Below are positions 1-21,358 of a DNA stretch of 46,824 nucleotides, piece by piece. Source of the DNA: an uncultured Gammaproteobacteria bacterium (GTDB taxonomy: Bacteria; Patescibacteriota; Patescibacteriia; Patescibacteriales; GWE2-39-37); NCBI GenBank assembly GCA_964443495.1, contig CAYUCS010000001.1:535496-582319 (forward strand), read 5' to 3'. A model generated the notes under the pieces. That model had not been told where the DNA came from. It made no database searches and saw only the letters and a program-made list of their open reading frames with translations. How positions within the stretch are numbered: position 1 is the first letter of the stretch; every line of letters starts with the position of its first letter. Both the position numbers and the translations under genes were made by a program.

Positions 1-912
1 GAAATGAAGAAGACTACAATCGAGATCACCAATAAAGAGGAAGAAATCAGGCGAGAGAAGGATCATGTCGGGACGGTCTTGAAATTGTTGTACAAGCGGG
101 ATCGAGCCAATGCCCTGGAAGTCTTGCTGCTCAATGATTCCTTTTCCGAATTCATGAACCAGGTCAAATATCTTGAAGACGTCAATCAAGAGTTGTCAGA
201 TAGCTTGGACGAACTCAAAAAGCTGCATGATGACCTGCAGTCAAAGAAAGCCGCCCTAGAAGAAAAGAGTAAAAAATTGGGCATTCTCAAGAAGGGTCTT
301 GATGACAAGCGCATCTCGCTCGAGAGCGAAAAAGAAGACAAGCGCTTCCTGGTCGATCAGACTGAGCAGTCGGAGCAGCAATTCCAGAAGCTGATCGCTC
401 AGGCGAAGCAGGAGCAGTCAGCCGCCGCCGCCGAAGTCGTCCAGCTCGAGCAGCTTATGCGCGAGAAGCTTTCGAAGAAGCAGCAGCAGAAGCTGGAGCA
501 GAACCCGGCTGGCATGATCTGGCCAGTGCCGAAGAATACGGTCACGACCTATTTTCACGATCCTGATTATCCGTTCAGATACATCTTCGAACATCCTGCG
601 ATCGATGTCCGCGCCAAGCAGGGAACGACCATCCGTGCCGCGGCCTCCGGCTATATCGCCCGGGCCAAGGATGCCGGCATGGGCTATAGCTACATCATGA
701 TCGTCCATGGCAATAACTTGGCCACCGTTTACGGCCATGTTTCCAAAATAATGGTCGAGGAAGACCAATACGTTGTCCAAGGACAGCCGATCGGCCTCTC
801 AGGCGGCATGCCAGGCACGCCAGGAGCCGGCAAATTGACCACTGGTCCGCATCTGCACTTCGAAGTTCGATTGAACGGCATTCCGGTCAACCCATTGGAA
901 TATTTGCCTTAA
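1..912 (+). CDS. M23 family peptidase with long N-terminal coiled coil (EnvC/NlpD-like murein hydrolase or activator), 5'-partial
   Basis: C-terminal M23 motifs HPAIDV, YGHVS and TGPHLHFEVRLNGIPVNPLEYL follow a heptad-rich coiled coil. The frame is open from base 1. Confidence 0.9.
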   Translation, partial: EMKKTTIEITNKEEEIRREKDHVGTVLKLLYKRDRANALEVLLLNDSFSEFMNQVKYLEDVNQELSDSLDELKKLHDDLQSKKAALEEKSKKLGILKKGLDDKRISLESEKEDKRFLVDQTEQSEQQFQKLIAQAKQEQSAAAAEVVQLEQLMREKLSKKQQQKLEQNPAGMIWPVPKNTVTTYFHDPDYPFRYIFEHPAIDVRAKQGTTIRAAASGYIARAKDAGMGYSYIMIVHGNNLATVYGHVSKIMVEEDQYVVQGQPIGLSGGMPGTPGAGKLTTGPHLHFEVRLNGIPVNPLEYLP

Positions 913-1112: not shown

Positions 1113-1784
1113 ATGAAAAAAATCCTAGCGTCGGCAATCGTGTTGTTCATTTTGTCGGTAGGCAGCGCCTTTGCCCTGCCCATGACGCAAACGTTCGCTC
1201 AACTGTCGGTTGAGCCGTTCAACTTCGTTGAGGGTTTCATACTCAGCGGACAGCAGTTTTCGGCAGCATCGCCGGCAGAAGGCGTCAACTACAACGGAAT
1301 CGGTAATTTCACCAACCCTAACTGGCATGGGGATATGCCGAACAGCAACTACATCCGTGCCTGGGGGCCGAGTGAGAATTTCCTCTTCTGGGACGCTGCC
1401 TTTGACGGCCGAATGTTCAACGGGGTCCCGATGGACGTTGCGGTCTACTGGTTTTTTTATAACACCCCTACCACCGCGGTTCCGCCGCAAGGACAGCTCA
1501 ATCTGTTGACCTTCCAGACCAACTACAACCCCTATGCACCGGAAGGATTAAGGTGGAGCATGGTTTCAAGTATTCACCAGAATGACTTCGGGCCTATCTT
1601 CAACATGTATGATCCTTCAATGGCTGAGTTGACCCCTGACATATTTGCCCCGATTCGCGGCGAATGGACCGTGCCTGTCGATCCGTCGGCACCTGTCCCC
1701 GAACCGAGCACGGTCGTGCTTCTTGCCTCCGGCTTGCTCTCGCTCGCCGTCTTTGCCAAGAGGCGCCAGAAACAGGCCATCTGA
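1113..1784 (+). CDS. Secreted PEP-CTERM sorting-domain protein
   Basis: ATG 1113 follows the SD AAGGAGGAGG (1097-1106). Signal peptide MKKILASAIVLFILSVGSAFA. C-terminus VPEPSTVVLLASGLLSLAVFAKRR is PEP motif + TM helix + basic tail. The ORF-track start at 966 is an upstream TTG. Confidence 0.85.
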   Translation: MKKILASAIVLFILSVGSAFALPMTQTFAQLSVEPFNFVEGFILSGQQFSAASPAEGVNYNGIGNFTNPNWHGDMPNSNYIRAWGPSENFLFWDAAFDGRMFNGVPMDVAVYWFFYNTPTTAVPPQGQLNLLTFQTNYNPYAPEGLRWSMVSSIHQNDFGPIFNMYDPSMAELTPDIFAPIRGEWTVPVDPSAPVPEPSTVVLLASGLLSLAVFAKRRQKQAI

Positions 1785-1808: not shown

Positions 1809-1834
1809 AAAGCCCGGCAGCAATGTCGGGCTTT
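1809..1834. terminator. Bidirectional intrinsic terminator between convergent PEP-CTERM and xer genes
   Basis: AAAGCCCGGCA-GCAA-TGTCGGGCTTT hairpin with GNRA loop and A/T-rich flanks. Confidence 0.75.
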
Positions 1835-1856: not shown

Positions 1857-2822
1857 CTAGTTCTTTAGCCGCTTGCCGGAGTGGAATTTTTGGTGGACAT
1901 CGCGGAGTTGCTTGTTGGTTACATGAGTATAGATTTGGGTGGTGGAGATGTTGGCGTGGCCTAAGAACTCCTGGACAAGCCTCAGGTCGACGCCTTGCGA
2001 TAGCAGGTCGGTCGCATAGGAGTGACGCAAAGTATGCGGGCTGGACATGATCGGTAGTCCGGAAATTTTGATGTATTTCTTGACGATATTTTCTATGGAA
2101 CGGACTGTCAGTCGGCGCGACTCGCTTTTCAGCTGGGCGGTCGTGAAATTGATGAACAGGGCAGGGTCCATATCGGAGCGCTTGGCCAGATATTTCGAAA
2201 GCCACTGCACTGTACGCTCGGAAAAATAAACCGTACGGACCTTACTGCCTTTGCCCGTGATACTGATTTCCAAAAAGGTGTTGCTCCCCGGCTTGATCTT
2301 CAGTTGGTCGCGGTCAAGCCGTGTCAGCTCGGCCACACGCAAGCCGGTTGAAAATAGGGTTTCGAGGATGGCACGGTCACGCAGGCCGCTGACCGAGTCG
2401 GTATCGGGCGCCAGAAGCAATTTTTCGATTTGGTCGATTTTCAGGAAGGTGACTTGCTTGTCAGATTTCTCTTTGGCCAATTTGATTTTGTCAGGCGGCA
2501 GGGAAGTGATGTCCTTTTCGACGAAGTAGGACAAAAGATTGCGCAGGGCGATAAGGTAGTAGTTTTGCGTGCTCTTCTTCAAGTTCGCCCTGCTCTGCTC
2601 GCTTTGATGGCGCGATAGGTGTAGGCGGTATTTCCAGATGTGATCGGCTGTCAGTTGGCTTGGTTTGAGTTCGGCCAGATCGGAATCCTCGAGCCAATCA
2701 AAAAATTTCTTTAAGAATCTGGAATAATTTTTTTGCGACTCGGAAGCCAGACCTTTTTCTATCTCTAGATAGTCCAGGAAGTCATAGAGGTAGTCGATTA
2801 TCGGTTTTTGTGACTTACTCAT
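1857..2822 (-). CDS. XerC/XerD-family site-specific tyrosine recombinase
   Basis: Catalytic set intact: TGLRVAEL (R), GKGSK (K), HTLRH (HxxR), LGHANISTTQIYTH (H, Y). N-terminal SAM-like domain present. ATG 2822 preferred over TTG 2834. Confidence 0.93.
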   Translation of the reverse strand: MSKSQKPIIDYLYDFLDYLEIEKGLASESQKNYSRFLKKFFDWLEDSDLAELKPSQLTADHIWKYRLHLSRHQSEQSRANLKKSTQNYYLIALRNLLSYFVEKDITSLPPDKIKLAKEKSDKQVTFLKIDQIEKLLLAPDTDSVSGLRDRAILETLFSTGLRVAELTRLDRDQLKIKPGSNTFLEISITGKGSKVRTVYFSERTVQWLSKYLAKRSDMDPALFINFTTAQLKSESRRLTVRSIENIVKKYIKISGLPIMSSPHTLRHSYATDLLSQGVDLRLVQEFLGHANISTTQIYTHVTNKQLRDVHQKFHSGKRLKN

Positions 2823-2878
2823 GGGGCGGGGCAATATTTTTTAGCTAAGGTTAGGTATAGTTATACCACCCCTATGCC

Positions 2879-2906
2879 ACTTCGCGTAATGTAGATTAAC
2901 CGAAAT
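2879..2906. other. Candidate dif-like Xer recombination site (11-6-11)
   Basis: ACTTCGCGTAA-TGTAGA-TTAACCGAAAT. Same layout as E. coli dif (GGTGCGCATAA-TGTATA-TTATGTTAAAT). Arms are inverted repeats at 8 of 11 positions. Lies 56 bp upstream of the xer ATG. Confidence 0.7.
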
Positions 2907-3022
2907 GAAGGGTGTATGATATAGCACCACAGTTAGGTTGCTGCGGTGCTGGGTAAATTCATGGACTTGGAATCGAGTTCGCTTCCTAGATCATCGGTGC
3001 GGCCAAAATCCGGTTCCTCGAG

Positions 3023-3169
3023 CTACGAGCTGGTCATTATTACGCCCATGATCTGGATGTGGTCGGTAAACAGCAATAGGAATTTTATCAGTAATACAAA
3101 GAAGCCGATTACGACTAGGCAGAAGATGAATATGCCTAAGGCGAATAGGAATTTGAATGCCGCTTCCAT
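3023..3169 (-). CDS. Small single-TM membrane protein (48 aa)
   Basis: MEAAFKFLFALGIFIFCLVVIGFFVLLIKFLLL... is strongly hydrophobic. The ATG at 3169 has an A-rich upstream region. Confidence 0.55.
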   Translation of the reverse strand: MEAAFKFLFALGIFIFCLVVIGFFVLLIKFLLLFTDHIQIMGVIMTSS

Positions 3170-3283
3170 TTTTTGAAAAATTAGGAGGGAACTACCGCTT
3201 CCCTTCGGGCTTAATAAATCGGCGGGCACTTGCGGCCCTCGCACTTCTCTTCCTTAATTTTAGCACAGGGAAGCCGCAGATTC

Positions 3284-3325
3284 AATAAACAAAAACGAGC
3301 TTTTGAAAGCTCGTTTTTGTTTATT
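3284..3325. terminator. Intrinsic terminator (20-bp perfect inverted repeat)
   Basis: AATAAACAAAAACGAGCTTT-TG-AAAGCTCGTTTTTGTTTATT, 8 bp after the stop of the cytochrome b5 gene. Confidence 0.85.
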
Positions 3326-3333
3326 GGAAGGTC

Positions 3334-4587
3334 TTAGTTGTCTGATTTTTTTTCTACGACCTTCTTCAGCTGCTCATTTTTCTTTTCTTCCCAGTTCTTG
3401 ATTTGTTCAGCCTTCTTTTCGGTTTGCTTCTTCAGCGCTTCCCTTTTCTTCTCGGCCTCTTTTTTCAGGGATTCTTTCTTTTTTTCGACTTCTTTCTTCA
3501 GCGCTTCCCTTTTCTTCTCAGCTTCTTTCTTGAGCTGCTCTTTCTGCTTCTCTAATTTTTTCTTCAGCTCCTCTTGGCGCTTTTCTGCTTGGCGTTGCTT
3601 CTCGGTCTTCCAGTATTTGACGCGCACCTTGATGACCTGCTCATAAGCTTTGCCATCCTTGGTTGAAAATACTAGCTTCGCAGTGGTCACGCTTGAAGTG
3701 GCCTTGTTGAATTCGGTCATTTGCTTGGCTCTGAACGAAGCGATGGCGTCGATCTTCTTGTCGCGGTTCAGGTCGCGCAGCACCAGCTGGACGGCGGAAG
3801 CGCCGGCAAATTTGATGGACTTCATGTCGATCTGCGTAGGATCAAGCGTCGCATCGCCGAAGATGTAGATCTTGACCAGCTCGTTGGAGCGAATGTTGAT
3901 TACTTTGGTAAAATTGTCGATATTCCCCTTGAATTTGATGCGCTTCTTGGGGGTTGAAGTCGCAGTTGAGGTGGCGGTAGAAGTTCCTGCCGGAGTCGGC
4001 TGAGCGGTATTGATGGTCAATCCGGCCGAGCTGGTCGATGTGTTCCCTGCTGCATCAAATGCGGAAACGGAGTAGGTGTAGCTGGTGCTGGCCGCGAGTC
4101 CGGAATCAGCGTACTGCCTTTGCGATGTGGTCGCGATAGTGGAGGTGCCGCGCATGACATTGTATCCGACGACGGCGACGTTATCGGTTGCAGCATTCCA
4201 TGAGAGCAAGGCGCTGCTGGTAGTAACGATGGCACTGAGGCCGGTCGGAGTCGATGGCTTGGTCGTGTCTGCGACAGGAGCGACGGTCAGGTCTCCGAGA
4301 TAAAGGTTTCCTAACGCCGCATTGGCAGAGGCAGATGAACCGTGCTTAGCCGTAAAGGCGGCCGAGCCGTCAGTTCCGCAAAGGCCCGTGATGGCAGCAT
4401 TCCCTCCTGGGTGGGACGAGGATGCGATGTACGAAGTCAGGTTGTAAACCTTGCTGTTTACGATCGTCCAGCAGTCGGCTGCTGTGTTGTGCGTGGCCAC
4501 GTCTTGGGCGGTATAGGTTGCCGCCTGAACGTTGCCCGCGACCAGAAACGCAAGTAATGCGAAACTGGTGAGAGCGGTTTTTTTCAT
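3334..4587 (-). CDS. Secreted multidomain protein: cytochrome b5 heme-binding domain, FN3, Ig-like domain with Dx[DN]xD loop, Lys/Glu-rich coiled-coil tail
   Basis: Signal peptide. b5 signature YTAQDVATHN..DCWTIVNSKVYNLT..HPGG..DGSAAF..KHG. FN3 with LSWNAATDN...YTYSVSAFD. DLNRDKKID loop. Repeated EKKREALKK tail. Confidence 0.85.
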   Translation of the reverse strand: MKKTALTSFALLAFLVAGNVQAATYTAQDVATHNTAADCWTIVNSKVYNLTSYIASSSHPGGNAAITGLCGTDGSAAFTAKHGSSASANAALGNLYLGDLTVAPVADTTKPSTPTGLSAIVTTSSALLSWNAATDNVAVVGYNVMRGTSTIATTSQRQYADSGLAASTSYTYSVSAFDAAGNTSTSSAGLTINTAQPTPAGTSTATSTATSTPKKRIKFKGNIDNFTKVINIRSNELVKIYIFGDATLDPTQIDMKSIKFAGASAVQLVLRDLNRDKKIDAIASFRAKQMTEFNKATSSVTTAKLVFSTKDGKAYEQVIKVRVKYWKTEKQRQAEKRQEELKKKLEKQKEQLKKEAEKKREALKKEVEKKKESLKKEAEKKREALKKQTEKKAEQIKNWEEKKNEQLKKVVEKKSDN

Positions 4588-5771: not shown

Positions 5772-7049
5772 TTAGGCTTTAGGCGTGATGGCCTTGATGC
5801 GGCCGGGCAGATATTTTTGCAAGACTTTAGGAATAACGATGGAGCCGTCGGCTTGCTGGTAGTTTTCCATGATGGCGATCATGGCCCGGGTGATGGCGAT
5901 AGCGGTGCCGTTTAACATGTGGACGAATTGGCGGTTGCCGCTCGCGTCTTTGTATTTGATGTTGAGTCCTCGGGATTGGTAGTCGGTACAATTGGATGTA
6001 GAGGTGATTTCGGCCCAGTCGCCGTTGACACCGGCCTGATTCGGCTTGCCTGGCATCCAAGCTTCAAGGTCATAAGTGCGGTAGGACGGCCCGCCAAGAT
6101 CGGCCGTGCAATGATCGACTACGCGGAACGGGATGTCGAGACCCTTGAAGATTTTTTCTTCGATTTTCAACAGCTCCTGATGGGTCTTTTCGCTCTGCTC
6201 GGGCGTGGTATAGACGAACATCTCTATCTTAGTGAATTGGTGCACGCGGAAGACGCCCTTGGAGAATTTGGAGTAGCTCCCTGCTTCGGTGCGGAAGCAG
6301 TGCGAGATCGCGACATATTTCTTAGGCAGCTCGGCTGCTTCGAAGACCTCGTCCTTATGGTAGCCGCCCATGGTGATTTCGGCGGTGCCGATCAAGCTGA
6401 GGTCGGTGTTTTCAATATTGTAAATCTGGGTGGATTCGCCTCGCGGATTGAAGCCTAGTCCCTCAAGCACTTCGCGCTTGGCCAGGTCGGGCGTGATTAC
6501 CGGGGTGAAGCCGTTTTTGGTGAGAATCTGCAGGGCGTACTGGATCAAGGCGAATTCAAGCAAGGCTAATTCATTTTTCAGATAGTAGAACTTCGCTCCG
6601 GTCACCTTGGTGGCGCGATCGAAATCGATCAAGTCGAGCTTGGCAGCCAATTCGACGTGGTCCTTGGGTTCGAAGCTGAACGAGGTCGGCTGCTTGAAAA
6701 TCGAGACCACTGGGTTGTCGTTCTCATTACTGCTGACTACGACTTTCGGATGGCTCAGGTTGGGAATCCTCAGAAGAAGTTCGCGCTGCTTGGCCTCGAG
6801 TTCGGCCAAGGCTTTTTCCAGGCCGGCGATTTCTTCGCCGACCGCCTTCATCTGCAGGATGATATCCTGGGTCGGTTTGGCTTTGGAGACCTTGTTGCGC
6901 TCGGCGCGCAGCTCGTCGATCTTAGCTTCGGTGGCGCGTCGTTCCTTGTCGATGCCCAAAAGCGCATCGACATCGACATCGACCAGCCTGTTCTTGGTAT
7001 TGGTCTTGACCAGCTCCGCGTTTTCGCGGATGAATTTGATATCTAACAT
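5772..7049 (-). CDS. serS: Seryl-tRNA synthetase
   Basis: MLDIKFIREN start, coiled-coil arm, LIGTAEIT, CFRTEAG..GVFRVHQFTKIEMF, EITSTSNCTDYQSR, HMLNGTAIA. Confidence 0.98.
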   Translation of the reverse strand: MLDIKFIRENAELVKTNTKNRLVDVDVDALLGIDKERRATEAKIDELRAERNKVSKAKPTQDIILQMKAVGEEIAGLEKALAELEAKQRELLLRIPNLSHPKVVVSSNENDNPVVSIFKQPTSFSFEPKDHVELAAKLDLIDFDRATKVTGAKFYYLKNELALLEFALIQYALQILTKNGFTPVITPDLAKREVLEGLGFNPRGESTQIYNIENTDLSLIGTAEITMGGYHKDEVFEAAELPKKYVAISHCFRTEAGSYSKFSKGVFRVHQFTKIEMFVYTTPEQSEKTHQELLKIEEKIFKGLDIPFRVVDHCTADLGGPSYRTYDLEAWMPGKPNQAGVNGDWAEITSTSNCTDYQSRGLNIKYKDASGNRQFVHMLNGTAIAITRAMIAIMENYQQADGSIVIPKVLQKYLPGRIKAITPKA

Positions 7050-8428: not shown

Positions 8429-9967
8429 CTAGTCCTGATCGATCAGCGCGGCGGCGACGAGGACTAGGCCGATGCCGAGCGGGTGGTTGAGGTAAGGCGT
8501 GAAGACGTGCACTGAGGCCAAGATGATTATGGCGATAGCAAAGCTGCCGTTCGGCAGACCGTATCTGTCTGGGGTGCGCCAATCTTCCCGACCTATCTTA
8601 TACAATAAATAAAGATAAGACAATAGTCCAAAAATACCTAATTTTAGCCAAATATCAAGCCAGCCCCATTCGAAGGCACTGGTCGTATAGTTGCCATCGG
8701 GACTGATTTTGAGGACCCGTGGATCCTGTGATTTGTAGGTGACTTCGGCACCGAAGCCCTTGCCCGAAATCGGGCTCGATTTGATCTGTTCCCAGAGCTT
8801 AGGCAAGAGCGCCCAGCGTGATCCGATTGCGGATTCATTGGCCTCGGTCAGCCTTTCAGAGAATAGATCGGTCGCGTTGAAGCCGCCAGTCGGGCGAGGC
8901 CAAGGCAATGCGATCGTAGTGCCGATGACTGCAACGGACAAGACGATGGCAATGGCCGAGGCGGCTAGCAGTGTTCGTACAGGACTAAGCAAGTTTTTGA
9001 AAAACGAGCCCCCGCTTTTAGCTGCTTTGACGACCAACCAAAGTCCGAACATGCCGAAGCCGGCGGCGGCACCGACCCAAAAGCTGCGCGAGAAGCTCAG
9101 GAGTATGGTTGTCAAATTAAGGGAAAGAAGCACCAGGGCAATTTTTGTTTCTTTTTTCCTGAAATATTCAATGAGCTTCTGACCGGAGACATTGGCAGTC
9201 AGCCAGCATGCGGCAAAGAAAAAGGCGAAAAGATTGTATATCTGCGATTGGATGAAAACACGGTAGAAGCCGCCCTCGATCTGGGTGATTTCGCCGATGC
9301 CGGTATCGCGCACCCAGTGATAGAGCGAGAATATCAGAAGCGTCTGGCCGTGCGAGAAGATATAGAGCAAGAAGAGCGTCTTGATCGAGAGCCAGGTGGT
9401 CGCCGCCCAGAAGACTGACCAGAGCATGTGCGGCAGCTGTGCGTTTTTCCGTACCCAGTATAGCGGGAAGACAAGACCGAAATAGATCCAGGCGTTGGCA
9501 TCAAGGAAGACATTCTTGGAATCGCTTTGCGTCAGCGAGCCGTTGAGCAGCCCCCAGGCAACCAGTAAGAACAAGACGGAAAAGGCGAGTCCGAAGCGGG
9601 CGGCTCTTATTTTATCAACCCAAGCTTTGAGCGTGCGTTCCCGCCAAAATGCCAGCGCGAATTTGCCCAACCAGACCAGCATCAAAAGCGACCAGATGGC
9701 GATGCGGATCGACAGCTTGAAGCTGCCTAGCTCAATGAAATAGAGATAGCCCTTTGAGCCGATGAATAGTTCGGCCAGGACGATCAAGACGGCGGCTTCA
9801 AGCCGCCAGATGGCTATGCCGAAAAAGGCCGCTATCAATAGCCAGAAAACGCCCTGGTTCATTTGAGGGATGGAGTAGCTGAAGTATGAAAAAAGTTCGG
9901 CCAGGAAAAAAGCGGCTAAAGCTTTCTTGTAGGTGGGATAATTACTGAGCATAGTGGTAAACGACAT
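8429..9967 (-). CDS. O-antigen ligase/polymerase-like (Wzy_C/WaaL/PglL-like) polytopic membrane protein
   Basis: About 12 TM segments, SFSRSFWVG motif, periplasmic loop SIGSRWALL..PISGKGFGA. True start may be ATG 9952. Confidence 0.8.
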   Translation of the reverse strand: MSFTTMLSNYPTYKKALAAFFLAELFSYFSYSIPQMNQGVFWLLIAAFFGIAIWRLEAAVLIVLAELFIGSKGYLYFIELGSFKLSIRIAIWSLLMLVWLGKFALAFWRERTLKAWVDKIRAARFGLAFSVLFLLVAWGLLNGSLTQSDSKNVFLDANAWIYFGLVFPLYWVRKNAQLPHMLWSVFWAATTWLSIKTLFLLYIFSHGQTLLIFSLYHWVRDTGIGEITQIEGGFYRVFIQSQIYNLFAFFFAACWLTANVSGQKLIEYFRKKETKIALVLLSLNLTTILLSFSRSFWVGAAAGFGMFGLWLVVKAAKSGGSFFKNLLSPVRTLLAASAIAIVLSVAVIGTTIALPWPRPTGGFNATDLFSERLTEANESAIGSRWALLPKLWEQIKSSPISGKGFGAEVTYKSQDPRVLKISPDGNYTTSAFEWGWLDIWLKLGIFGLLSYLYLLYKIGREDWRTPDRYGLPNGSFAIAIIILASVHVFTPYLNHPLGIGLVLVAAALIDQD

Positions 9968-10391
9968 TTGCGCCTGCGGTTATCTTGTTTTTTTCCGCCC
10001 AGCCAGCAGGCACTTCGAGGACGTAATTGGCCGGTTCATCGGATTGATAAGTCTTCTGAGGGCTATCGCCTTCGGGCGGCAGGTTCGGCGAAATCTTGAT
10101 GACAGTATTGTCTTTGATCCAGATGATGTCTATCGGGAATAGCATATTTTTCATCCAGAATGATCTTGGGGTCAGCTCGCTGAAAATAAAAAGCATGCCC
10201 TGGTTTTTCCCTAGAGGCTTGTGGCCGGACAGCCCCTTGATCTGTTCCGCTTGCGTCCTGGCTAATTCGATTTCGACTTTTCGGCCGTTGATTTCGACGT
10301 ACGGCTTGGCTTCGTCCTTCCCTGTCCCGGCACAACCGGTGAGGAGGAGAGTGGAAAGCGCAATAATGGCGAACTTGGCTTTGGCGTTCAT
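9942..10391 (-). CDS. DUF192 family lipoprotein
   Basis: Lipobox LTGC, then GLSG...GMLFIF....FWMKNMLFPIDIIWI and YVLEVPAG. Confidence 0.9.
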   Translation of the reverse strand: MNAKAKFAIIALSTLLLTGCAGTGKDEAKPYVEINGRKVEIELARTQAEQIKGLSGHKPLGKNQGMLFIFSELTPRSFWMKNMLFPIDIIWIKDNTVIKISPNLPPEGDSPQKTYQSDEPANYVLEVPAGWAEKNKITAGANVVYHYAQ

Positions 10392-11371
10392 TTTTTTTCT
10401 TTGAATATTTTCCTGATCACTTCGTCGATATCGACCTCGTCGATCAGGATGTCATCGACCGGCAGGTCCGAGGAAAGGATCCTGGTCGCTGCCTGCTTGA
10501 CCTGATCGCGCTCCACCTCGATCCAGGCCTCGTAGCGGTTGAATTTTTGGATCTGGCCGAACGGCTCGACCTGCTCCTTGGACACGCCCTGGTCGTTGAA
10601 AGTGATTTTCAGGGTCTTGTAAGGCGCGTATTGCTTGATCAGGTCGTCAAGCAAGCCGTCGTAACCGATTTCGCCATGGTCGATGATGACCACCCTTTTG
10701 CAAAGCTCCTTGATGTCGTCCATGTAGTGCGACGTCAGGATGATGGTCGTCTTCTTCTCGCGGTTGTACTTCTTGATGAAGTCGCGGATATTCTTCTGCG
10801 CTACGACGTCGAGGCCGATGGTCGGCTCGTCGAGAAACAGGATCCGCGGCTGGTGCAGCAAGGCGGCGACCAGTTCGCACTTCATGCGCTGACCCAAGGA
10901 AAGCTTGCGGACTTGGACGTCAAGAATATCCTTGATTTCCAGGAGCGTGGTCAATTCTTCCAGATTCTTCTCGAACTCGGCATCGGTCACTTCATAGATT
11001 TCTTTGTTGAGGATGAAGCTGTCCATGGCGGGCAAGTCCCACCAAAGCTGGTTCTTTTGGCCCATAACCAGGGCAAACTGCTTCTGGTACTCTTTCTGAC
11101 GCTTGTGCGGCGTGAAGCCGAGCACTTTCGCCTCGCCGGCCGATGGGTGGAGGATGCCGGATAGCATCTTCAAGGTAGTCGTCTTCCCCGCTCCGTTCGG
11201 TCCGAGGAAGCCGATGAGTTCGCCCTCTTCGATAGAAAGGCTGATATCCTTGACGGCTTCAGTGATCAGTTTCTCGCGTTTGAACAGGCCCTTGATCGAG
11301 GCTGCGAGCCCAGGCTGCTTCTTGTAGTATTCGTAGGTCTTGGAAAGACCCTTTACTTCGATGATAGGCAT
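10388..11371 (-). CDS. ABC transporter ATP-binding protein (DrrA/ABC-2 exporter type)
   Basis: Walker A GPNGAGKTT, signature LSLGQ, Walker B LFLDEPT, H-loop TSHYM. Confidence 0.95.
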   Translation of the reverse strand: MPIIEVKGLSKTYEYYKKQPGLAASIKGLFKREKLITEAVKDISLSIEEGELIGFLGPNGAGKTTTLKMLSGILHPSAGEAKVLGFTPHKRQKEYQKQFALVMGQKNQLWWDLPAMDSFILNKEIYEVTDAEFEKNLEELTTLLEIKDILDVQVRKLSLGQRMKCELVAALLHQPRILFLDEPTIGLDVVAQKNIRDFIKKYNREKKTTIILTSHYMDDIKELCKRVVIIDHGEIGYDGLLDDLIKQYAPYKTLKITFNDQGVSKEQVEPFGQIQKFNRYEAWIEVERDQVKQAATRILSSDLPVDDILIDEVDIDEVIRKIFKEKK

Positions 11372-11395
11372 AATAGTATTTTAGGTGAATTGTTA

Positions 11396-16430: not shown

Positions 16431-17887
16431 GAGTTTGTTTCCTGGTTGCCGCCGCGCTTGAATGAAGCGGCGATGCTCAATATATCTTCTTTGCGAAAGG
16501 CGCGGACAATGAACAGAAGGGCGAAATATGCCGCTCCGGAGATCGCCACGACTAAGAAGACGTTTAAATAATTTTTCAATAGAGTCGAAAGTCCGCCCAT
16601 TACCGCCGAGGCCAAGAGCACCTTCCCTGCCATCGTGGCGACCTTGCGGCGATTGTAATCGGTAATGGCCGGAATCAGCCGCATGCCGAGGACAAACATC
16701 ATGAAGTTGGTGGCCAGGACGGCGACCGAGGCGCCGACCGCTTGGTATTTCGGTATCAGCGCAAGATTAAGCGCGGCGCTCGTCAAGGTGACGATGACCA
16801 TGTTGCGGGTGTTGGCCTTTTGCTGGTCGCAGGCGTTGAGCAAAGCGCCTAAGGCGAAGTTGAGGAAAAGGAAGACCAGGGCGGCGATATTCAGGCGCAG
16901 CGGCCAAAGCGCGTTGGCATAGCTGTCGGTAAATAGGAGCAGGATCTTGTCGGCGATCGAGATGATGCCGATGCTGATCGGCATGGCGATAATCAGAAGA
17001 TAATTCATCGCGCGCTCAAAGGTGATGGCCAGTTGCGAGCGGTTGTTTTGCCAGTACGAAGCGAAGGCCGGGTAAAGCGATGCCGAAAAGGCCGCGGGCA
17101 GGAATTGCAAGGCAAAGATGATTTTGAAAGCGACCTGGTAGATTCCGACCGCTTCATCGCCGGCTAGTCGTGACAACAGGACAGTGTCGAAGTAGGTGTA
17201 AAAACGCTGAGCGATGCCGAAAGTGGCGAACGGCAAGCTGATAATGATAAGCTTCTTGGCCAGTTCGCGATCGATGATCGGTCGGATCCTGATTTTCCAT
17301 TTTCGCGTGACGATGAAGTAGGCATAGATCGTATTGAGCAGGCTGGCAACGACCAGCGCGCCCATCTGCCACTCGACCCCGTAACCGAGCTTGAGTGTCA
17401 GAAGACCCAAGCCAAGTACGGTCAATTGATACGAAACCGAGGCGATGCTTTCGAAAGACAGATTGTGGAAGCCGCGGCTCAAGGAAAAAAAAGTCAGGGT
17501 AAAGGAATCGAAGATCATGCAAGCCGAAGCGAGATAGACAAGGAATTTGGTCAAGTCAGGATAGCCCATCAGGTTGACCGAAAGCACTAAGCCGAGCCAG
17601 ACCAGCAAGGTCAGCGGCAGCTTCAAGCCGAGGACGTTGTTCAGATACTGCCCTGCCCGCTCAGGATCTTTGGCGGTCTCGCGGGTCGAGACGTTGGAAA
17701 AACCGAGGTCGATGAAGACGGCGAAGATCGTGGTGAAAGACAGGGCGAAGTAGTACTTGCCTAAATCCTCCGGACCGAGAGCCCTGGCGATGATGACGAA
17801 ATAGGTAAAAGAAACCACCTTCTGCAAGATCAATGCTAAGGTGTAATAAGAAGTGTTTTTCGCGATATTAACGACTTTTTGAGCCAT
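16427..17887 (-). CDS. Wzx-type polysaccharide flippase (MOP superfamily)
   Basis: IAKNTSYY, LGPEDLGKYYFALS, DLGFS, DTVLLSRLAGDEAVGIYQVAFK, about 14 TMs. Confidence 0.9.
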   Translation of the reverse strand: MAQKVVNIAKNTSYYTLALILQKVVSFTYFVIIARALGPEDLGKYYFALSFTTIFAVFIDLGFSNVSTRETAKDPERAGQYLNNVLGLKLPLTLLVWLGLVLSVNLMGYPDLTKFLVYLASACMIFDSFTLTFFSLSRGFHNLSFESIASVSYQLTVLGLGLLTLKLGYGVEWQMGALVVASLLNTIYAYFIVTRKWKIRIRPIIDRELAKKLIIISLPFATFGIAQRFYTYFDTVLLSRLAGDEAVGIYQVAFKIIFALQFLPAAFSASLYPAFASYWQNNRSQLAITFERAMNYLLIIAMPISIGIISIADKILLLFTDSYANALWPLRLNIAALVFLFLNFALGALLNACDQQKANTRNMVIVTLTSAALNLALIPKYQAVGASVAVLATNFMMFVLGMRLIPAITDYNRRKVATMAGKVLLASAVMGGLSTLLKNYLNVFLVVAISGAAYFALLFIVRAFRKEDILSIAASFKRGGNQETNS

Positions 17888-17957
17888 ATGTTCATCAAAA
17901 AGCCCTGTCCGGGCCTAGGTTTATTATACCTTATTTAAGCTAAAAATCCAGCCTAAA

Positions 17958-17992
17958 AACAAACAACCTCCGATAATCGGAGGTTGTTTGTT
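17958..17992. terminator. Intrinsic terminator after rpsI
   Basis: AACAAACAACCTCCGAT-A-ATCGGAGGTTGTTTGTT 17-bp inverted repeat. Confidence 0.85.
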
Positions 17993-18022
17993 GGTATATA
18001 CAAAGAGGTGTATACTGATTGT

Positions 18023-18490
18023 TTAGCGCTTGGCCCACTGCGGAGCTTTGCGAGCTTTCTTCAAACCTGGCTTTTTGCGTTCCTTGACGCGTGAATCGCG
18101 GGTCAGGAGGCCTTTAGCCTTCAAGGTCGGGCGCAGAGCTTCTTCCAGGGCGATCAGGGTGCGGGAAATGCCGTGGCGGATCGCGTCAGCCTGGCCCTTT
18201 TTGCCGCCGCCGGTGACCAGGACGGAGAAATTCAAATCCTTGGTGTGGCTGGTCAATTTCAAAGGGACCAGTGAAATATTGGAAAAAGTCGGTGTCAGGT
18301 ATTCCTCGAGAGACATGCCGTTGACAGTGATGATGCCTTCGCCCTTCTGGTACAGACGGACGCGAGCAATCGCCGCTTTGCGCTTGCCTACGGCTTCGAT
18401 ATATCGGCCCTTGAACTGGGTGGCCGGAGCAGCAGCCTTCTTGGTTTCCTTTTTGGCTTCGGTTTTTTTCTTTGGTTCGGTCATAGTCAA
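18023..18490 (-). CDS. rpsI: 30S ribosomal protein S9
   Basis: GKRKAAIARVRL, GGGKKGQADAIRHGISR, LLTRDSRVKERKKPGLKKARKAPQWAKR. Confidence 0.98.
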   Translation of the reverse strand: MTMTEPKKKTEAKKETKKAAAPATQFKGRYIEAVGKRKAAIARVRLYQKGEGIITVNGMSLEEYLTPTFSNISLVPLKLTSHTKDLNFSVLVTGGGKKGQADAIRHGISRTLIALEEALRPTLKAKGLLTRDSRVKERKKPGLKKARKAPQWAKR

Positions 18491-18497
18491 GGAGTGA

Positions 18498-18860
18498 TTA
18501 GCGAATTATTAAGCGACGCATTAGGTCTGGGCGCTTCTTGATCGGCGGCAACATCTCGCGGACTGCCCGCTTCAGGATATCGGCCGGATTATTTTTCTTC
18601 AAATCCTTCATCTGAGTGACCTTCAAGCCGCCTGGATGCTGGGAATGGCGATAATATAATTTCTGGTCGACTTTCTTGCCGGTGAATGACAGCTGGTCGA
18701 TGTTCTTGACTTCGACGATGTCGCCCAGGTCAAGGTGCGGCTGGAATTCTGGCTTGTGCTTGCCGCGAAGCAGCATGGCAATCTGGGTTGCCAAACGTCC
18801 TACGGCTTGGCCGGCGGCGTCGATATTATGGATTTTTCGTTCTACTTTTGGTGTGGCCAT
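18498..18860 (-). CDS. rplM: 50S ribosomal protein L13 (short, 120 aa)
   Basis: IDAAGQAVGRLATQIA..LRGKHKP.F.PH.D.GD, YYRHSQHPGGLK, AVREMLP. ATG 18860. The track start at 18926 overlaps rplQ. Confidence 0.96.
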   Translation of the reverse strand: MATPKVERKIHNIDAAGQAVGRLATQIAMLLRGKHKPEFQPHLDLGDIVEVKNIDQLSFTGKKVDQKLYYRHSQHPGGLKVTQMKDLKKNNPADILKRAVREMLPPIKKRPDLMRRLIIR

Positions 18861-18873
18861 ATGAATGATGATT

Positions 18874-19224
18874 TTAAACCAGTTCGATCTGAACCATTTC
18901 CGCGCCATCGCCTTGGCGAGCGCCAAGCTTTACGATGCGGCTGTATCCGCCTGGACGTTCCTTGTAGCGGTCGCCCAACACTTCCATAGCCTTCTTGACT
19001 GCCAAAGTCTGCGGCAAAGTTGCCAGCAAGCGTCGGCGTGCGGCCAAATCGCCTGTCTTCGCTACGGTGATCATGCGATCAAGCAACGGCCTGACGGCTT
19101 TGGCTTTGGCTTCAGTGGTCTTGACTTTCTCGTAGATAATAATGCTAGAGGCCAGGTTGCGCAACATAAGCTCACGTGGTGCCTTAGCTCTGTCAAGTAT
19201 TACATTTTTGTTTCGATGCCTCAT
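18874..19224 (-). CDS. rplQ: 50S ribosomal protein L17
   Basis: MRHR start, IIYEKVKTTEAKAK, RYKERPGGYSRIVK...RQGDGAEM. Confidence 0.98.
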   Translation of the reverse strand: MRHRNKNVILDRAKAPRELMLRNLASSIIIYEKVKTTEAKAKAVRPLLDRMITVAKTGDLAARRRLLATLPQTLAVKKAMEVLGDRYKERPGGYSRIVKLGARQGDGAEMVQIELV

Positions 19225-19252
19225 AGTAGTGCATTAATAACTAGCGAAAGGC

Positions 19253-20071
19253 TTAGCCCTTCTTTGGTCGTCCGCGCTTCTTTTTCGATTCTTGCTCGTC
19301 ACCATCTTCGTCTTCCGACTCTTCTTCCGCTTCATCTTCGGTCGCTTCCTCTTCGGAAGCGGCTTCCTCTGACTTCTTTGCGGCTGGTGCGGCCAATAAA
19401 GCGCCGAACTGTTCGATTAAAATATTTACAGAATCAGTAAATGCCTGTTCGGTGGTGATGGTGCCATCAGTGGTGATGGTCATTACCAGCTTGTCCCAGT
19501 TGGTCATCTTACCGACACGGACGTTATCGACCTGCAGGCCGACGTTCATGACCGGCGAGTAAGCGGAGTCGATCTCGATGTAGCCGATCTCGTGCTTGAC
19601 CTTCTCGCGGCTTTCGATAGTCTCATAACCGCGGCCGGCCTGGACGGAAATTTCCATCTGCAGGTTGCCAGCCATGTCGGTGATATTGGCGATAACTAGG
19701 TCCTTGTTGATGATCTCGACCTGGCTGTTAGCTTCGATGTCGGCGGCAGTGACAATCTTTTCGCCGTGGACGTTCAATTCCAGCTTGATGACCTGGTCGC
19801 TATGGACCTTGAGGCGAAGCTGCTTCAGGTTCATGATGATTTCCAGGACGTCTTCTTTGACGTGCGGGACGGTCATGAATTCATGGTCAGCACCTTCGAT
19901 TTTTACGCCGATAACTGCTGCGCCCGGAAGCGAAGACAGGAGCACGCGACGCAAGGAATTGCCCAAAGTGATACCGTAACCCGGAAAGCAAGGCTCGATC
20001 GTAACGACCTCCTGGTTAGGTTGCTCACCCTTCTCGATTTTGATTTTTTGTGGCAAGGCAATTTTTTCCAT
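19253..20071 (-). CDS. rpoA: RNA polymerase alpha subunit lacking the canonical alpha-CTD
   Basis: EPCFPGYGITLGNSLRRVLLSSLPGAA, HEF..VPHVKEDVLEIIMNLK, IDSAYSPV.NV...V...RVG. Ends in an acidic tail plus KKKRGRPKKG. Confidence 0.97.
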   Translation of the reverse strand: MEKIALPQKIKIEKGEQPNQEVVTIEPCFPGYGITLGNSLRRVLLSSLPGAAVIGVKIEGADHEFMTVPHVKEDVLEIIMNLKQLRLKVHSDQVIKLELNVHGEKIVTAADIEANSQVEIINKDLVIANITDMAGNLQMEISVQAGRGYETIESREKVKHEIGYIEIDSAYSPVMNVGLQVDNVRVGKMTNWDKLVMTITTDGTITTEQAFTDSVNILIEQFGALLAAPAAKKSEEAASEEEATEDEAEEESEDEDGDEQESKKKRGRPKKG

Positions 20072-20096
20072 AGTTGCTTTTTATATAATTTATGTT

Positions 20097-20726: not shown

Positions 20727-20749
20727 ATTTATTCAAGTAAGTTCATTGA

Positions 20750-21358
20750 TTAAACGCGTCTCGGTTTCTTAGCGCGGCAGCCGTTGTGCGGGATCGGGGT
20801 GATGTCGCGGATATAGCTGACAGTCAGACCACTGGCGTTCAATGCGCGGATAGCGGACTCGCGGCCGGTGCCTACGCCCTTGACGTAAACGCCGACTTCC
20901 TCGAGGCCGTATTCCTTGGCACGCTCGACAGCGATGCGGGTGATGATCGAAGCGGCATAAGGAGTCGATTTCTTCGGGCCCTTGAAACCTGCCACGCCGG
21001 CGCTTGCCCAGCTGATGACGTTTCCGGTATTGTCAGCCAATGTGATGATAGTATTGTTATAGGTGGCCTTGATGAAAGCTTTGCCGACGCTGACCTTCTT
21101 GTCGATCTTCTTTTTCTTGCCTTTTTTCTTGGCACCTTTGCCTTCAGCCTTCTCTTTGCGCTTTTCCAAAATCTTCTTGACGCTCTCTGGCAGCTCCTCG
21201 GCCTGGCCGTGGACTACGCGCACAACTTTGTCATTCGACTTGTCGTCACGGAATGAGAAAATTTCACCCGCTGCATTGTCATTCTGGGTGTCGTCGGTTG
21301 CTGGCGTTACTGGAGTTTCGTCAGCGGTTTCTTGATTGTTAGTCTTCTCTTCAGACAT
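20750..21358 (-). CDS. rpsK: 30S ribosomal protein S11 with long N-terminal extension
   Basis: [49 protein letters not shown]. About 80-aa acidic then Lys-rich N-extension. ATG 21358. Confidence 0.97.

Follow-up and report, generated by a model that had tools for sequence, protein, structure and literature searches.

Near the left end of the window, by which is meant the whole stretch of 46,824 nucleotides analysed here, lies a gene for a Xer-family tyrosine recombinase (xer) preceded by an intergenic 28-bp element with the layout of a dif recombination site, 56 bp upstream of the xer ATG at position 2822 (Table 1). The two genes to the left of this site are encoded on the + strand and almost all genes to its right on the - strand. 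The strand switch itself falls strictly at the 3' end of xer (~1800-1857), so that the gene convergence reported in the preliminary description is present but is centred 1 kb from the site.

Table 1. Features of the xer locus, with positions counted from the first letter of the window.
Feature	Position	Strand	Description
M23 peptidase gene	4..912	+	5' end cut by window edge; Pfam Peptidase_M23 1.2e-24
PEP-CTERM-anchored protein gene	1113..1784	+	First gene of the opposing block
GC-rich hairpin AGCCCG-N10-CGGGCT	1811..1832	.	Separates the stop codon of the PEP-CTERM gene from that of xer; read from the sequence
xer, Xer-family tyrosine recombinase, 321 aa	1857..2822	-	ORF; reads away from the site
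Imperfect 12-bp palindrome GCTAAGGTTAGG	2844..2855	.	Between core site and xer; full form GCTAAnnTTAGC
Flanking inverted segment ATACCACCCCT	2863-2873		Common to window and 96%-identical relative
dif-like core site	2879..2906	.	11-6-11 layout, 28 bp; ACTTCGCGTAATGTAGATTAACCGAAAT
Strong arm ACTTCGCGTAA	2879-2889		Part of core site
Central region TGTAGA	2890-2895		Part of core site
Weak arm TTAACCGAAAT	2896-2906		Part of core site
Flanking inverted segment AGGGTGTAT	2909-2917		Common to window and 96%-identical relative
Hairpin-forming inverted repeat AGCACCACAG / CTGCGGTGCT	2923..2950	.	Between small upstream ORF and site
Small hydrophobic ORF (MEAAFKFLFALGIFIF...)	3023..3169	-	Directly upstream of site, on the xer strand
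Promoter-like site	3285-3257		

The GC-rich hairpin beyond the 3' end of xer is a probable two-way terminator where the gene blocks converge, and was omitted by the terminator scan because its loop exceeds the limit of that scan. The PEP-CTERM neighbour also occurs in loci L082 and L083, and the M23 peptidase is the kept neighbour on the far side of xer in L082, L084-L089 and most clade-A loci (family 2). On the other side, the small hydrophobic ORF, to which Pfam assigned no family, aligns with the upstream ORFs of L002-L005, L016, L017, L019, L026, L027, L031 and L032; small genes are called at its place in L082, L084 and L088, and the ORF is kept in the window's clade. Relatives carry a hairpin of other sequence at the place of the inverted repeat that separates this ORF from the site. 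Counted from the site start, the GCTAAnnTTAGC element occupies the same offset, +51 to +61, in L020, L100, L102, L112 and L117; the window copy, with one mismatch, is a weak candidate for an accessory or operator element. Scans for Rfam families and tRNAs had no match anywhere in the window.

The xer product contains a Pfam Phage_integrase domain (1.1e-36) and SAM-like N-terminal domains. Phage_integrase is matched by xer alone, and there is no second tyrosine recombinase in the window. Searches placed the xer product on a single further contig, of 4.8 kb, and gave no record for the epimerase encoded at the far end of the window. The NCBIfam scores of the product were 224.9 bits for XerD (cut-off 329.6), 221.4 for XerC (335.15), 183.1 for XerA (220) and 115.3 for XerS (267), all under the respective cut-off, and equivalog status as XerC or XerD is not reached, the two scores being nearly equal. 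The product likewise falls outside the XerS and XerH families (115.3 bits on the XerS model; XerH chain at E 2.8e-15). Among solved structures, the nearest is XerD of E. coli (1A0P, E 1e-37), with which the catalytic R, K, HxxR, H and Y all align; XerA (PDB 4A8E) matches at 6e-31 and XerH (PDB 5JJV) at 3e-15, with no Cre chain among PDB matches of E 1e-5 or better. The motif by which XerD contacts FtsK, RQ..QQ (PMC5357621), reads RD..QK in the xer product.

The sequence of the site, previously described as an 11-6-11 dif-like element upstream of the recombinase gene, was confirmed, as was the count of 8/11 matches between its left arm and the reverse complement of its right arm (ATTTCGGTTAA). 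Arm symmetry reaches 10/11 in the family consensus, compared with 6/11 in XerCD dif sites. The family strong arm, ACTTCGCATAA, is almost invariant and the opposite arm is looser, with 32 and 131 departures, respectively, over 41 distinct sites, and arm position 8 is a fixed asymmetry (a mismatch) in 40 of these. The first four bases of the central region, TGTA, are the same in E. coli dif and loxP. The 28-mer therefore has the layout of a dif-type site (~28-31 bp, imperfect inverted arms, a 6-8 bp centre, non-coding). Divergent recombinases are accompanied by divergent sites in which the layout is unchanged and the changes are symmetric in both arms, for example ATGTCGC...GCGACAT in L135 and AGTGAGT...ACTCAGT in L146.

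Palindromes of 11-6-11 layout with a TAA-N6-TTA core and arms at least 8/11 symmetric occur twice in the window, against ~0.18 expected, one being the site at 2879 and the other lying within AT-rich spacer DNA at 22312, indicating that the shape by itself is only mildly unusual. The family consensus, which was built from other genomes, has one window match with up to three mismatches and none in 100 shuffles. A chance palindrome is ruled out by conservation and not by shape. The imperfect inverted segments flanking the site, which had also been reported, do exist in the window and its 96%-identical relative, but they are absent from the 82% and 78% relatives and are not a feature of the family; they were rejected as part of the site, since their conservation stops at the closest relative and information is at background beyond 28 bp.

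The upstream regions of 60 orthologous xer loci have the 28-bp motif as their sole common motif, with 1.2-2.0 bits of information at most of positions 1-28 and ~0.1-0.9 bits outside; the conserved block is exactly 28 bp, and as the loci are phylogenetically related, locus counts here and below are counts of non-independent events. When 541 kb was searched with the site model R1, the window and 49 Patescibacteria loci each gave exactly one strong match (E 1e-5 or better), always upstream of the xer orthologue, the single window match scoring 32.4 bits (E 3.5e-8). Most loci with more distant Xer genes had no strong R1 match. A scan of reference genomes by DNA pattern only found at least 119 stretches; among the 119 matches listed, 99 have a Xer homologue beginning no more than 1.5 kb from the site and reading away from it, and the matches listed include 80 assemblies, all different, with one site match each. 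Conservation of the 28-mer upstream of orthologous xer genes, on which the preliminary description had made its reading depend, is therefore very clear and extends over ~100 genomes.

The site is present once in the 46.8-kb window and once per 20-kb relative locus. On long records its location is ~430.5 kb in CP179889.1 (complete, 647,540 bp), ~627.6 kb in JAXGYM010000001.1 (1,064,049 bp) and ~265.7 kb in JAAXUA010000001.1 (338.5 kb), the last from a close relative of the window. No second full site was found within 10 kb in any host locus, which led to rejection of a two-site invertible switch. The site is retained down to 54% Xer identity, and its distance to xer is 5-330 bp in most loci and up to 1.1 kb where an insert is present. 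Its orientation relative to xer differs between clades, and the flanking genes vary while the site is kept, with at least two flank contexts and many different immediate neighbours. The same module occurs in Oscillospiraceae and in one Sumerlaeota genome, indicating that it is not restricted to the candidate phyla radiation.

Copies of the site were also found on eight tailed-phage contigs, where they adjoin terminase genes and have 26-27/28 identity to host sites. Seven of these contigs have no recombinase within the examined stretch, and L168 has its own integrase beside the site. Exact GCTAAnnTTAGC copies lie 25-75 bp from the site in four of the eight. An apparent inversion of the central region in phage sites relative to host sites was dropped, as host sites with similar centres exist. 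In several bacterial genomes, an insert of 0.4-1.1 kb with small opposite-strand ORFs separates the full site from xer, and a half-site, ACTTCGCATAATATTRTATACT, remains next to xer; Pfam detected no mobile-element domains in the small ORFs between site and xer.

The position of the module was compared with the polarity of the surrounding chromosome. In the relatives, coding sequence to the left of the site amounts to 121,212 bp on the + strand and 993 bp on the - strand, and beyond xer to 115,686 bp on the - strand; genes converge at the module in every relative with sequence on both sides, and this convergence is retained although the flanking gene families differ between clades. GC skew is positive to the left and negative to the right of the site in 30 of 33 relative loci, which is the polarity of a terminus, and in 23 of the 33 the cumulative skew peaks no more than 1.5 kb from the site. 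At 4-fold degenerate sites, 28 of 34 genomes have a lower coding-strand GC skew in xer than in the upstream block (p 2e-5), placing the skew flip upstream of xer. Control loci of other phyla have no such pattern. Convergence is confounded with the skew flip at most loci, since almost every gene is co-oriented with the local leading strand, and the separation of the two depends on xer and ~20 other opposite-strand genes; the idea that the flip is a mere by-product of gene orientation is partly rejected by these genes and the 4-fold sites, the two effects being not fully separable.

The window's own lineage departs from this pattern, with no change of skew sign across the site from -13 kb to +44 kb. 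The window itself covers the 44 kb of this same-sign skew, and L082, the 96%-identical relative, covers the other side, where it continues for 10 kb past xer (~13 kb from the site). The assignment of this locus to the terminus region in the preliminary description thus agrees with the relatives, by convergence and skew, and is unproven for the window's genome, in which no flip is seen; if skew marks the terminus, the site of the window lies at least 44 kb from it. In L088, a full-length ParB gene is located 10 kb from the site. ParB genes are usually found near the origin. A nearby origin of replication was discounted, as none of the loci has a DnaA Walker-A motif within 10 kb of the site.

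The 28-mer is probably the dif-type recombination site of the adjacent Xer, and its conservation in ~100 related uncultured bacteria makes it probably the site at which their chromosome dimers are unlinked. Its biological role would be dimer resolution at the terminus, with Xer binding and cutting at the 28-mer. The symmetry of the arms and the linkage of gene and site suggest that a single Xer acts as a homodimer on each site. In the proposed mechanism, two Xer monomers would bind the two inverted 11-bp arms, the ACTTCGCATAA arm tightly and the looser arm more weakly, and two sites on a dimeric chromosome would be brought together. Xer would then cleave at the edges of the 6-bp central region and strands would be exchanged in two steps via a Holliday junction, the one added crossover converting the chromosome dimer into two monomers. 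The asymmetric TGTAGA centre and unequal arms would give the site direction and probably determine which strands are exchanged first, in the manner of XerH/difH and XerS/difSL. The process is presumably coupled to division, for example by FtsK. As the site lies within the promoter or leader region of xer, autoregulation of xer is a likely second role.

The site could instead be a Xer target whose main role differs, either as a docking or integration site for phages or cassettes or as the remnant of a domesticated integrative element (integrase and att site). The arrangement of gene and site is that of an integration module, as has been remarked for difSL (PMC1914069), and this proposal would also account for the near-identical sites on phage contigs, the integrase beside the site in L168, the inserts with the half-site beside xer and one assembly that is broken at the site on two contigs. 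It is nevertheless unlikely, given that the module is present in one copy per locus and has been conserved by vertical descent, protein identity following the clades, that housekeeping genes flank it with no second full site nearby, and that a dimer-resolution site would be expected where the module is found, at the convergence and skew switch. Known mobile elements with dif as their integration target take advantage of a site already present for dimer resolution (PMC9765430, PMC5357621), so phage use is no argument against dimer resolution. Somewhat less probable still is a regulatory operator or part of the xer promoter, bound by Xer or another protein with no strand exchange. The site is always in the xer upstream region, mostly within a few hundred base pairs of the start codon; CATAAT, a sequence like a -10 box, is present in one arm; a promoter-like TTGACA-N16/17-TAAAAT sequence, identified by eye just upstream in clade B, places the site in the leader; and the second palindrome, GCTAAnnTTAGC, adjoins it in some genomes. 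An operator would, however, have no need of the 11-6-11 layout, TAA-N6-TTA core and dif/loxP-like TGTA centre over such deep divergence, and would not be expected to flip its orientation to xer between clades, to lie up to 1.1 kb away with genes between, or to adjoin phage terminase genes where there is no xer to regulate.

An RNA or single-stranded DNA hairpin, acting as a leader structure or as the terminator of the upstream small gene rather than as a protein-bound duplex, is very improbable. Pairing of the arms is possible (-13.3 kcal/mol with the consensus, -10.3 with the xer-sense strand of the window), and divergent variants contain a few symmetric double changes. Conservation of sequence nevertheless goes beyond pairing and includes the TGTA of the 'loop', the mismatch at arm position 8 is retained, one arm has four times the variation of the other with no compensating changes, the direction of the site relative to transcription differs between clades and no Rfam family matches.

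Beyond dimer resolution, it is conceivable, though rather doubtful, that the site also serves as a hub of host-Xer-dependent exchange in ultra-small bacteria, involving phage use, cassette insertion and Cre/lox descent. Phages with a near-perfect site, often accompanied by GCTAAnnTTAGC, and with no recombinase of their own would use the host Xer, which might circularise incoming phage DNA, as P1 does with Cre/lox, or integrate the phage at the host site. Small gene cassettes would have been inserted between site and half-site in some hosts, and the likeness to loxP would reflect descent of Cre/lox-type phage systems from single-Xer modules.

A large part of bacterial diversity belongs to the Patescibacteria (the candidate phyla radiation), yet cultures exist for almost none of them and genomes are the only source from which their chromosome biology is deduced. 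A dimer-resolution site of this kind would provide a one-line sequence marker of the probable terminus in fragmented metagenome-assembled genomes, which would aid coverage-based growth-rate estimates, assembly checks and replichore analysis. The site copies on phage contigs tie these contigs to hosts and thereby offer a handle on phages of Patescibacteria. The module is also a predicted one-protein, one-site recombination system that is testable in E. coli, and a candidate marker-excision tool of natural origin for the few members that can be cultivated. Its presence in Oscillospiraceae and its likeness to loxP bear on the relations among single- and double-recombinase Xer systems and phage lox systems.

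The module shares with XerCD/dif the 28-bp 11-6-11 layout, TAA-N6-TTA core and TGTA centre, and its protein is nearest to XerD, with the same catalytic residues. In sequence, E. coli dif agrees with the consensus at 20/28 positions and with the window at 19/28 (left arm 7/11, spacer 5/6, right arm 7/11), in keeping with the likeness of left arm and spacer noted earlier, and B. subtilis dif at 19/28 and 17/28, respectively. XerCD consists of two paralogous recombinases acting on two distinct arms (6/11), with genes far from dif, whereas the present module has a single linked gene, arms with 8-10/11 symmetry and a protein below the equivalog cut-offs of both XerC and XerD. The inner 28 bp of loxP (ACTTCGTATAATGTATGCTATACGAAGT) agrees with the consensus at 22/28 positions, has the same ACTTCG-N16-CGAAGT spacing and 10/11 arms, and is part of a system in which one recombinase, Cre, serves both arms. 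The arms of loxP are 13 bp long (13-8-13), whereas conservation here ends at 28 bp and the protein is not Cre-like; with this 28-bp limit and no Cre chain among its structural matches, the module lies outside Cre/loxP, and the likeness may reflect convergence or old common descent. loxP/Cre is reported to be able to replace dif functionally (Leslie and Sherratt 1995, as cited in PMC1914069).

A 'Cand' subgroup of simple tyrosine recombinases, related to Xer and named for 'Candidate' phyla, has been described (Smyshlyaev et al. 2021, PMC8138268), with the suggestion that class-specific simple recombinases may stand in for Xer. Compared by description only, the Patescibacteria host and Xer-like two-domain architecture of the present protein fit this subgroup; no recombination site, gene-site linkage or genome position for 'Cand' was found in the searched text of PMC8138268. 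The literature search returned no described dif in candidate phyla, nor in Clostridia with a linked xer. The Xer/dif module thus appears to have gone undescribed in Patescibacteria so far, in that 'Cand' recombinases have been named and a description of their site was not found.

Among single-recombinase systems, XerL/dif of Legionellales was also found by genomics and has a palindromic dif, of which the Coxiella copy adjoins xerL, and the mobile element LME-1 carries a mimic of the XerL dif site (PMC9765430). XerL differs in belonging to a distant Xer branch with an unrelated site sequence, and Legionella xerL is not reported beside the chromosomal site. Archaeal XerA/dif likewise combines one recombinase with a conserved 28-bp dif (PMC2958812, PMC5357621), and XerA gives the next-best scores (183 bits), but the xer product is below the XerA cut-off of 220. 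XerA also works without FtsK, whereas ftsK is present in at least one candidate-phyla bacterium, TM7x (PMC10768705). Linkage of gene and site is given as a hallmark of XerS and XerH only, and is not reported for XerA, in a review (PMC5357621).

XerH/difH of Helicobacter and Campylobacter resembles the module as proposed here in its single recombinase, a site near the gene and arms of unequal strength (PMC5357621, PMC5241119), and differs in its difH arms (AGTTATGAAAA / AAAAGTTTGA) and in a protein of 354-362 aa that is distant from the xer product (5JJV at 3e-15, compared with XerD at 1e-37). In XerS/difSL of streptococci and lactococci, the site is directly upstream of the gene, and the arms are near-symmetric, as here; one half-site is preferred, as proposed here, and the module sits at the GC-skew shift (PMC1914069, PMC5357621). 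difSL is 31 bp long with an 11-bp centre, in contrast to 28 bp and a 6-bp centre here, and XerS is a distinct family of 356 aa, compared with a 321-aa product that reaches only 115 bits against a XerS cut-off of 267 and is nearer to XerD and XerC. The adjacency of gene and site suggests that the module belongs with the single-gene Xer/dif modules of the XerS/difSL and XerH/difH kind, and it would probably work in the manner of XerS and XerH while being a member of neither family.

The site lies upstream of the start codon of the recombinase gene xer (ATG at 2822), from which it is separated by 56 bp, and the sequence confirmed both the 11-6-11 layout and the inverted match between its arms (8/11 positions) given in the preliminary description. 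The window begins with genes for an M23 peptidase (+) and a PEP-CTERM protein (+), followed by a hairpin, xer (-) and the site (see table). NCBIfam bit scores of the window Xer were similar for XerD (224.9) and XerC (221.4), lower for XerA (183.1) and lowest for XerS (115.3), all four being below the curated cut-off. The nearest solved structure was E. coli XerD (1A0P, E 1e-37), and all catalytic residues (R, K, HxxR, H, Y) were aligned. To the right of a small hydrophobic ORF lie 44 kb of genes, nearly all on the minus strand, including those for an FtsQ-like protein, SerRS, GreA, an ABC-2 transporter, glycosyltransferases, ribosomal proteins S9, L13, S4, S11 and S13, RpoA, AlaRS, MnmA, TGT and TruD. 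No dnaA, ftsK or second recombinase gene was found in the 46,824-nt window. Within the long block, third-position GC is 0.28 in a 301-aa gene without a Pfam match and 0.6-0.8 in the genes around it, and window GC falls to 0.44 at this point; this segment is probably recently acquired DNA.

The bare shape of the site is mildly unusual, with two such palindromes (11-6-11, TAA-N6-TTA core) in the window against about 0.18 expected, and it was the comparative evidence, not the shape, that decided that the site exceeds chance. Orthologues were sampled by a protein-guided scan at one genome per species, and about 55 of the best 80 loci belonged to Patescibacteria (Xer identity 54-82%). Alignment of the 360 bases 5' of the orthologues revealed only one conserved block (consensus ACTTCGCnTAATnTAnATTAnGCGAAGT), with an information content across 41 instances of 1.2-2.0 bits at most of its 28 positions and already about 0.1-0.9 bits one base beyond either edge. 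A sequence-only search with a model of the site (R1) against the window and the 80 loci (541 kb, both strands) gave exactly one strong match per locus in 49 Patescibacteria loci and likewise one in the window, the match lying 5' of xer in every case; loci of other phyla gave no strong match. Each locus still held a single site when flanks were widened to 10 kb, and the family consensus matched the window once at three or fewer mismatches, compared with no match in 100 shuffles.

In the reverse direction, the DNA pattern alone, without protein information, was run against all reference genomes and found at least 119 stretches with one match each, the 80 listed assemblies all being distinct. Among the matches listed, 99 of 119 stretches have a Xer homologue that begins no more than 1.5 kb from the site and points away from it, and most of the remainder are truncated at the stretch end. 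The protein-guided scan and the reverse test together establish gene-site linkage in both directions, bearing out the earlier proposal of a self-contained Xer-plus-dif module whose 28-mer is kept upstream of orthologous xer genes; as judged from sequence comparison, this reading of the gene-site pair is well supported. Many contigs (L005-L009, L014, L017, L018, L021, L025, L028 and others) are titled 'uncultured Gammaproteobacteria', 'Saccharibacteria', 'Nanoarchaeia archaeon' or 'Omnitrophota' and contain clear Patescibacteria-type xer loci; the taxonomic assignment of these assemblies appears unreliable. In a single assembly, two contigs both stop at the site (L244, the end of CAYNAR010000005.1, and L051/L136, the end of CAYNAR010000006.1), a sign that the population concerned may have a repeat or a structural variant there.

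Coordinates of the site, xer and associated features in the window and in compared loci (L-numbers)
Locus	Feature	Coordinates	Strand	Remarks
Window	GC-rich hairpin	1811-1832		between PEP-CTERM gene and xer
Window	xer	1857-2822	-	321 aa; Pfam Phage_integrase (1.1e-36) and SAM-like N-terminal domains
Window	imperfect copy of GCTAAnnTTAGC	2844-2855		between site and xer
Window	site	2879-2906		ACTTCGCGTAA-TGTAGA-TTAACCGAAAT
Window	hairpin	2923-2950		between site and small hydrophobic ORF
Window	small hydrophobic ORF	3023-3169	-	beyond the 2923-2950 hairpin
Window	second palindrome	22312		inside AT-rich spacer
Window	301-aa gene	29661-30566
Window	true opposite-strand gene	39684-41597
L087/L088	DNA polymerase III alpha and full-length ParB genes	16573-20963		6-10 kb from site
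L135 (complete Nealsonbacteria genome)	site	9911-9938		ATGTCGCACAA-TGATGG-TAAAGCGACAT
L146	site	about 9930		AGTGAGTATAA-TAACCC-TTACACTCAGT
L153 (Sumerlaeota)	site	5982-6009		ACTTCGTTTAG-TGTATA-CTAAACGAAGT; upstream of 32%-identical xer
L166 (phage)	site; TerL	1803-1830; 2119-3669
L169 (phage)	two direct site copies	1867-1894; 2799-2826
L171 (phage)	site; TerL	1156-1183; 1354-2937
L173 (phage)	site; TerL	9754-9781; 9912-11372
L097	site-xer insert	130-1264
L111	site-xer insert	9400-10001
L136	site-xer insert	26-627
L138	full site and half-site, no cargo	9905-9975
L094, L096, L099	site-xer insert
L176, L187, L194, L195, L207, L213, L217, L222, L226, L231, L239, L241, L243, L245, L260-L264, L272, L282	site			Oscillospiraceae and other Clostridiales

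The two arms of the site are unequal, the left arm (ACTTCGCATAA) being near-invariant and the right arm (TTAAGCGAAGT or TTTATCGAAGT) far looser, with 32 versus 131 departures from the ideal half-site in 41 distinct sites. Arm position 8 differs between the two half-sites (A versus T) in 40 of the 41, and TGTA, with which the centre opens, is conserved. The arms match at 10/11 positions in the consensus and at 6/11 in the dif sites of E. coli and B. subtilis. Relative to xer, the asymmetric core has opposite orientations in the two main clades, clade A (which includes the window) and clade B. Distant recombinases (L135, L146 and L153) have the same site layout with both arms altered symmetrically. 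The unequal arms and conserved asymmetric centre argue against a plain RNA hairpin; although thermodynamically possible at the site, a hairpin would not keep the same mismatch inside its stem, conserve its loop or vary on one side only.

The terminus was tested by local signatures across many loci, each oriented with xer on the plus strand. Coding sequence left of the site amounted to 121,212 bp on the plus strand and 993 bp on the minus strand, and on the right xer (+) is followed by 115,686 bp of coding sequence on the minus strand, a pattern unchanged with 10-kb flanks. The gene convergence reported in the preliminary description held in every locus with sequence on both sides, the meeting point being the 3' end of xer, about 1 kb from the site. 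The order in clade A is SerRS and the FtsQ-like gene, the site, and xer facing the M23 peptidase gene; the flanks in clade B are other gene families, and convergence is retained in both. Both flanks were long enough for a GC skew comparison in 33 loci. Skew was positive on the left and negative on the right in 30 of them and higher on the left in all 33, and in 23 the cumulative maximum was no more than 1.5 kb away from the site. The complete Nealsonbacteria genome had +0.105 and -0.109. Loci of other phyla from the same search had no consistent pattern.

Since gene strand and skew are confounded, 4-fold degenerate sites were analysed. Mean coding-strand GC skew at these sites was -0.108 in genes left of the site (+), -0.058 in genes right of xer (-), -0.264 in xer and about -0.27 in some 20 other plus-strand genes on the right, with xer below the left block in 28/34 genomes (p 2e-5) and below the right block in 31/34 (p 9e-7). 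These values indicate a strand-wide bias that in most genomes flips between the upstream block and xer, i.e. at the site, which is the polarity expected of a terminus. The chromosomal position of the module in most relatives is well supported. Two observations call for caution. ParB genes usually lie near the origin, and a full-length ParB with the GERRLRA motif is encoded 10 kb from the site in L088; in L087/L088 a DNA polymerase III alpha gene accompanies the ParB gene. On two long records the site falls at 66% of the length in one (647.5 kb) and at 59% in the other (1,064 kb), which are record positions and not distances from the origin. In L160 and L161 (Clostridia and Lachnospiraceae; Xer 29-31% identical), convergence and a change of skew from positive to negative also occur within a few kb of xer; a position of xer close to the terminus is thus possible in some Firmicutes as well.

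The terminus proposal, which local signatures support in most relatives, was not matched by the raw skew of the window lineage, which has no sign change over the sequence covered, unlike that of 30 of 33 relatives. Coding-strand 4-fold skew was -0.32 in the long block of the window (36 genes) and -0.24 in xer, and 13 genes beyond xer in L082, a 96%-identical relative, had -0.08; these values make the plus strand of the window G-rich to the left and to the right of the site, over at least 13 kb in one direction and 44 kb in the opposite one. In a true opposite-strand gene of the block, third-position skew was about 0, and in the genes next to it about -0.25. The coding strand of the 44-kb block (within 2907-46824) is C-rich at synonymous sites (about -0.3) and that of the opposing block is not, so that by composition the long block with its ribosomal-protein genes looks as if replicated head-on. 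A few other clade-A genomes are intermediate. The fork-meeting point is possibly displaced in the window lineage, and a terminus location in the window genome is putative. In Legionella, dif lies up to 79 kb away from the skew inflection (PMC9765430).

The most interesting lead comes from phages that have copies of the site. When viral contigs (IMG/VR) were scanned for the pattern, eight had the site (L166-L173), and PHROGs matches to terminase large subunits, a tape-measure protein and, weakly, head-tail adaptors identify the site-bearing contigs as tailed phages. Phage and host sites are identical at 26-27 of 28 positions. In four contigs no more than about 320 bp separates the site from the terminase-large gene; in L170 the distance is about 670 bp, with a small ORF between. 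Within the stretches analysed, only one contig (L168) has its own integrase, which adjoins the site. The two direct copies in L169, 932 bp apart, have identical arms and different centres (TCACTA versus CAACCA); the first directly follows a tRNA-like 3' end, and two small opposite-strand ORFs lie between them. Integration or circularisation of these phages may rely on the host Xer. Four of the eight contigs (L166, L167, L170, L172) have an exact copy of a 12-bp palindrome, GCTAAnnTTAGC, at a distance of 25-75 bp from the site, against a roughly estimated 0.01 exact copies by chance. In a subset of hosts (L020, L100, L102, L112 and L117) the palindrome lies at a fixed offset of +51 to +61 from the site, between site and xer, and the window has an imperfect copy there; the palindrome may act as an operator or as an accessory site.

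In several hosts, 0.4-1.1 kb with small opposite-strand ORFs separates the full site from xer, and a half-site (ACTTCGCATAATATTRTATACT) is left adjoining xer. The insert ORFs of L097 and L111 are mutually homologous, and Pfam searches of the small insert ORFs gave no informative match and no mobile-element domain. The half-site in L138 lies 18 bp from the full site, without cargo. Mobile elements exploit dif in Vibrio, Legionella and gokushovirus hosts (PMC5357621, PMC9765430, PMC7062461), and the phage copies and inserts fit a true recombination site exploited in this way, short of proof.

The XerD motif contacting FtsK is RQ..QQ (PMC5357621), and its position in the window Xer reads RD..QK, which says little either way; ftsK is present in at least one member of the candidate phyla radiation, TM7x (PMC10768705). 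Among Xer-related recombinases, Smyshlyaev et al. 2021 (PMC8138268) name a 'Cand' subgroup found in candidate phyla, and they suggest class-specific simple recombinases as possible stand-ins for Xer; their passages on this subgroup give no recombination site. A near-identical site, ACTTCGCATAA-TATCAA-TTTAACGAAGT, is present in at least about 21 genomes of Oscillospiraceae and other Clostridiales. It lies 100-400 bp upstream of a xer gene whose product shares only 30-34% identity with the window Xer. With the Sumerlaeota variant, these genomes show that the module is not specific to candidate phyla. The literature searched, covering part of the journals, described no dif in Patescibacteria and no such module in Clostridia.

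The family consensus is identical to E. coli dif at 20/28 positions and to B. subtilis dif at 19/28. For loxP of phage P1, the inner 28 bp agree with the consensus at 22/28 positions and with the window site at 20/28; none of 200,000 random 28-mers reached 21/28 or better against loxP. The ACTTCG-N16-CGAAGT spacing is common to loxP and the family site, whereas structure comparison found the window recombinase not to be Cre-like. Single-recombinase systems described in reviews and primary papers are XerS/difSL, XerH/difH, XerA and XerL (PMC5357621, PMC9765430), and the family site resembles those of XerS/difSL and XerH/difH in its strong arm, weak arm and conserved asymmetric centre (PMC5357621). 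We infer that a single recombinase serves the putative dif site and functions in dimer resolution. On sequence grounds, the module joins the known single-gene Xer/dif modules, with a canonical 28-bp, loxP-like site and a recombinase nearest to XerD.
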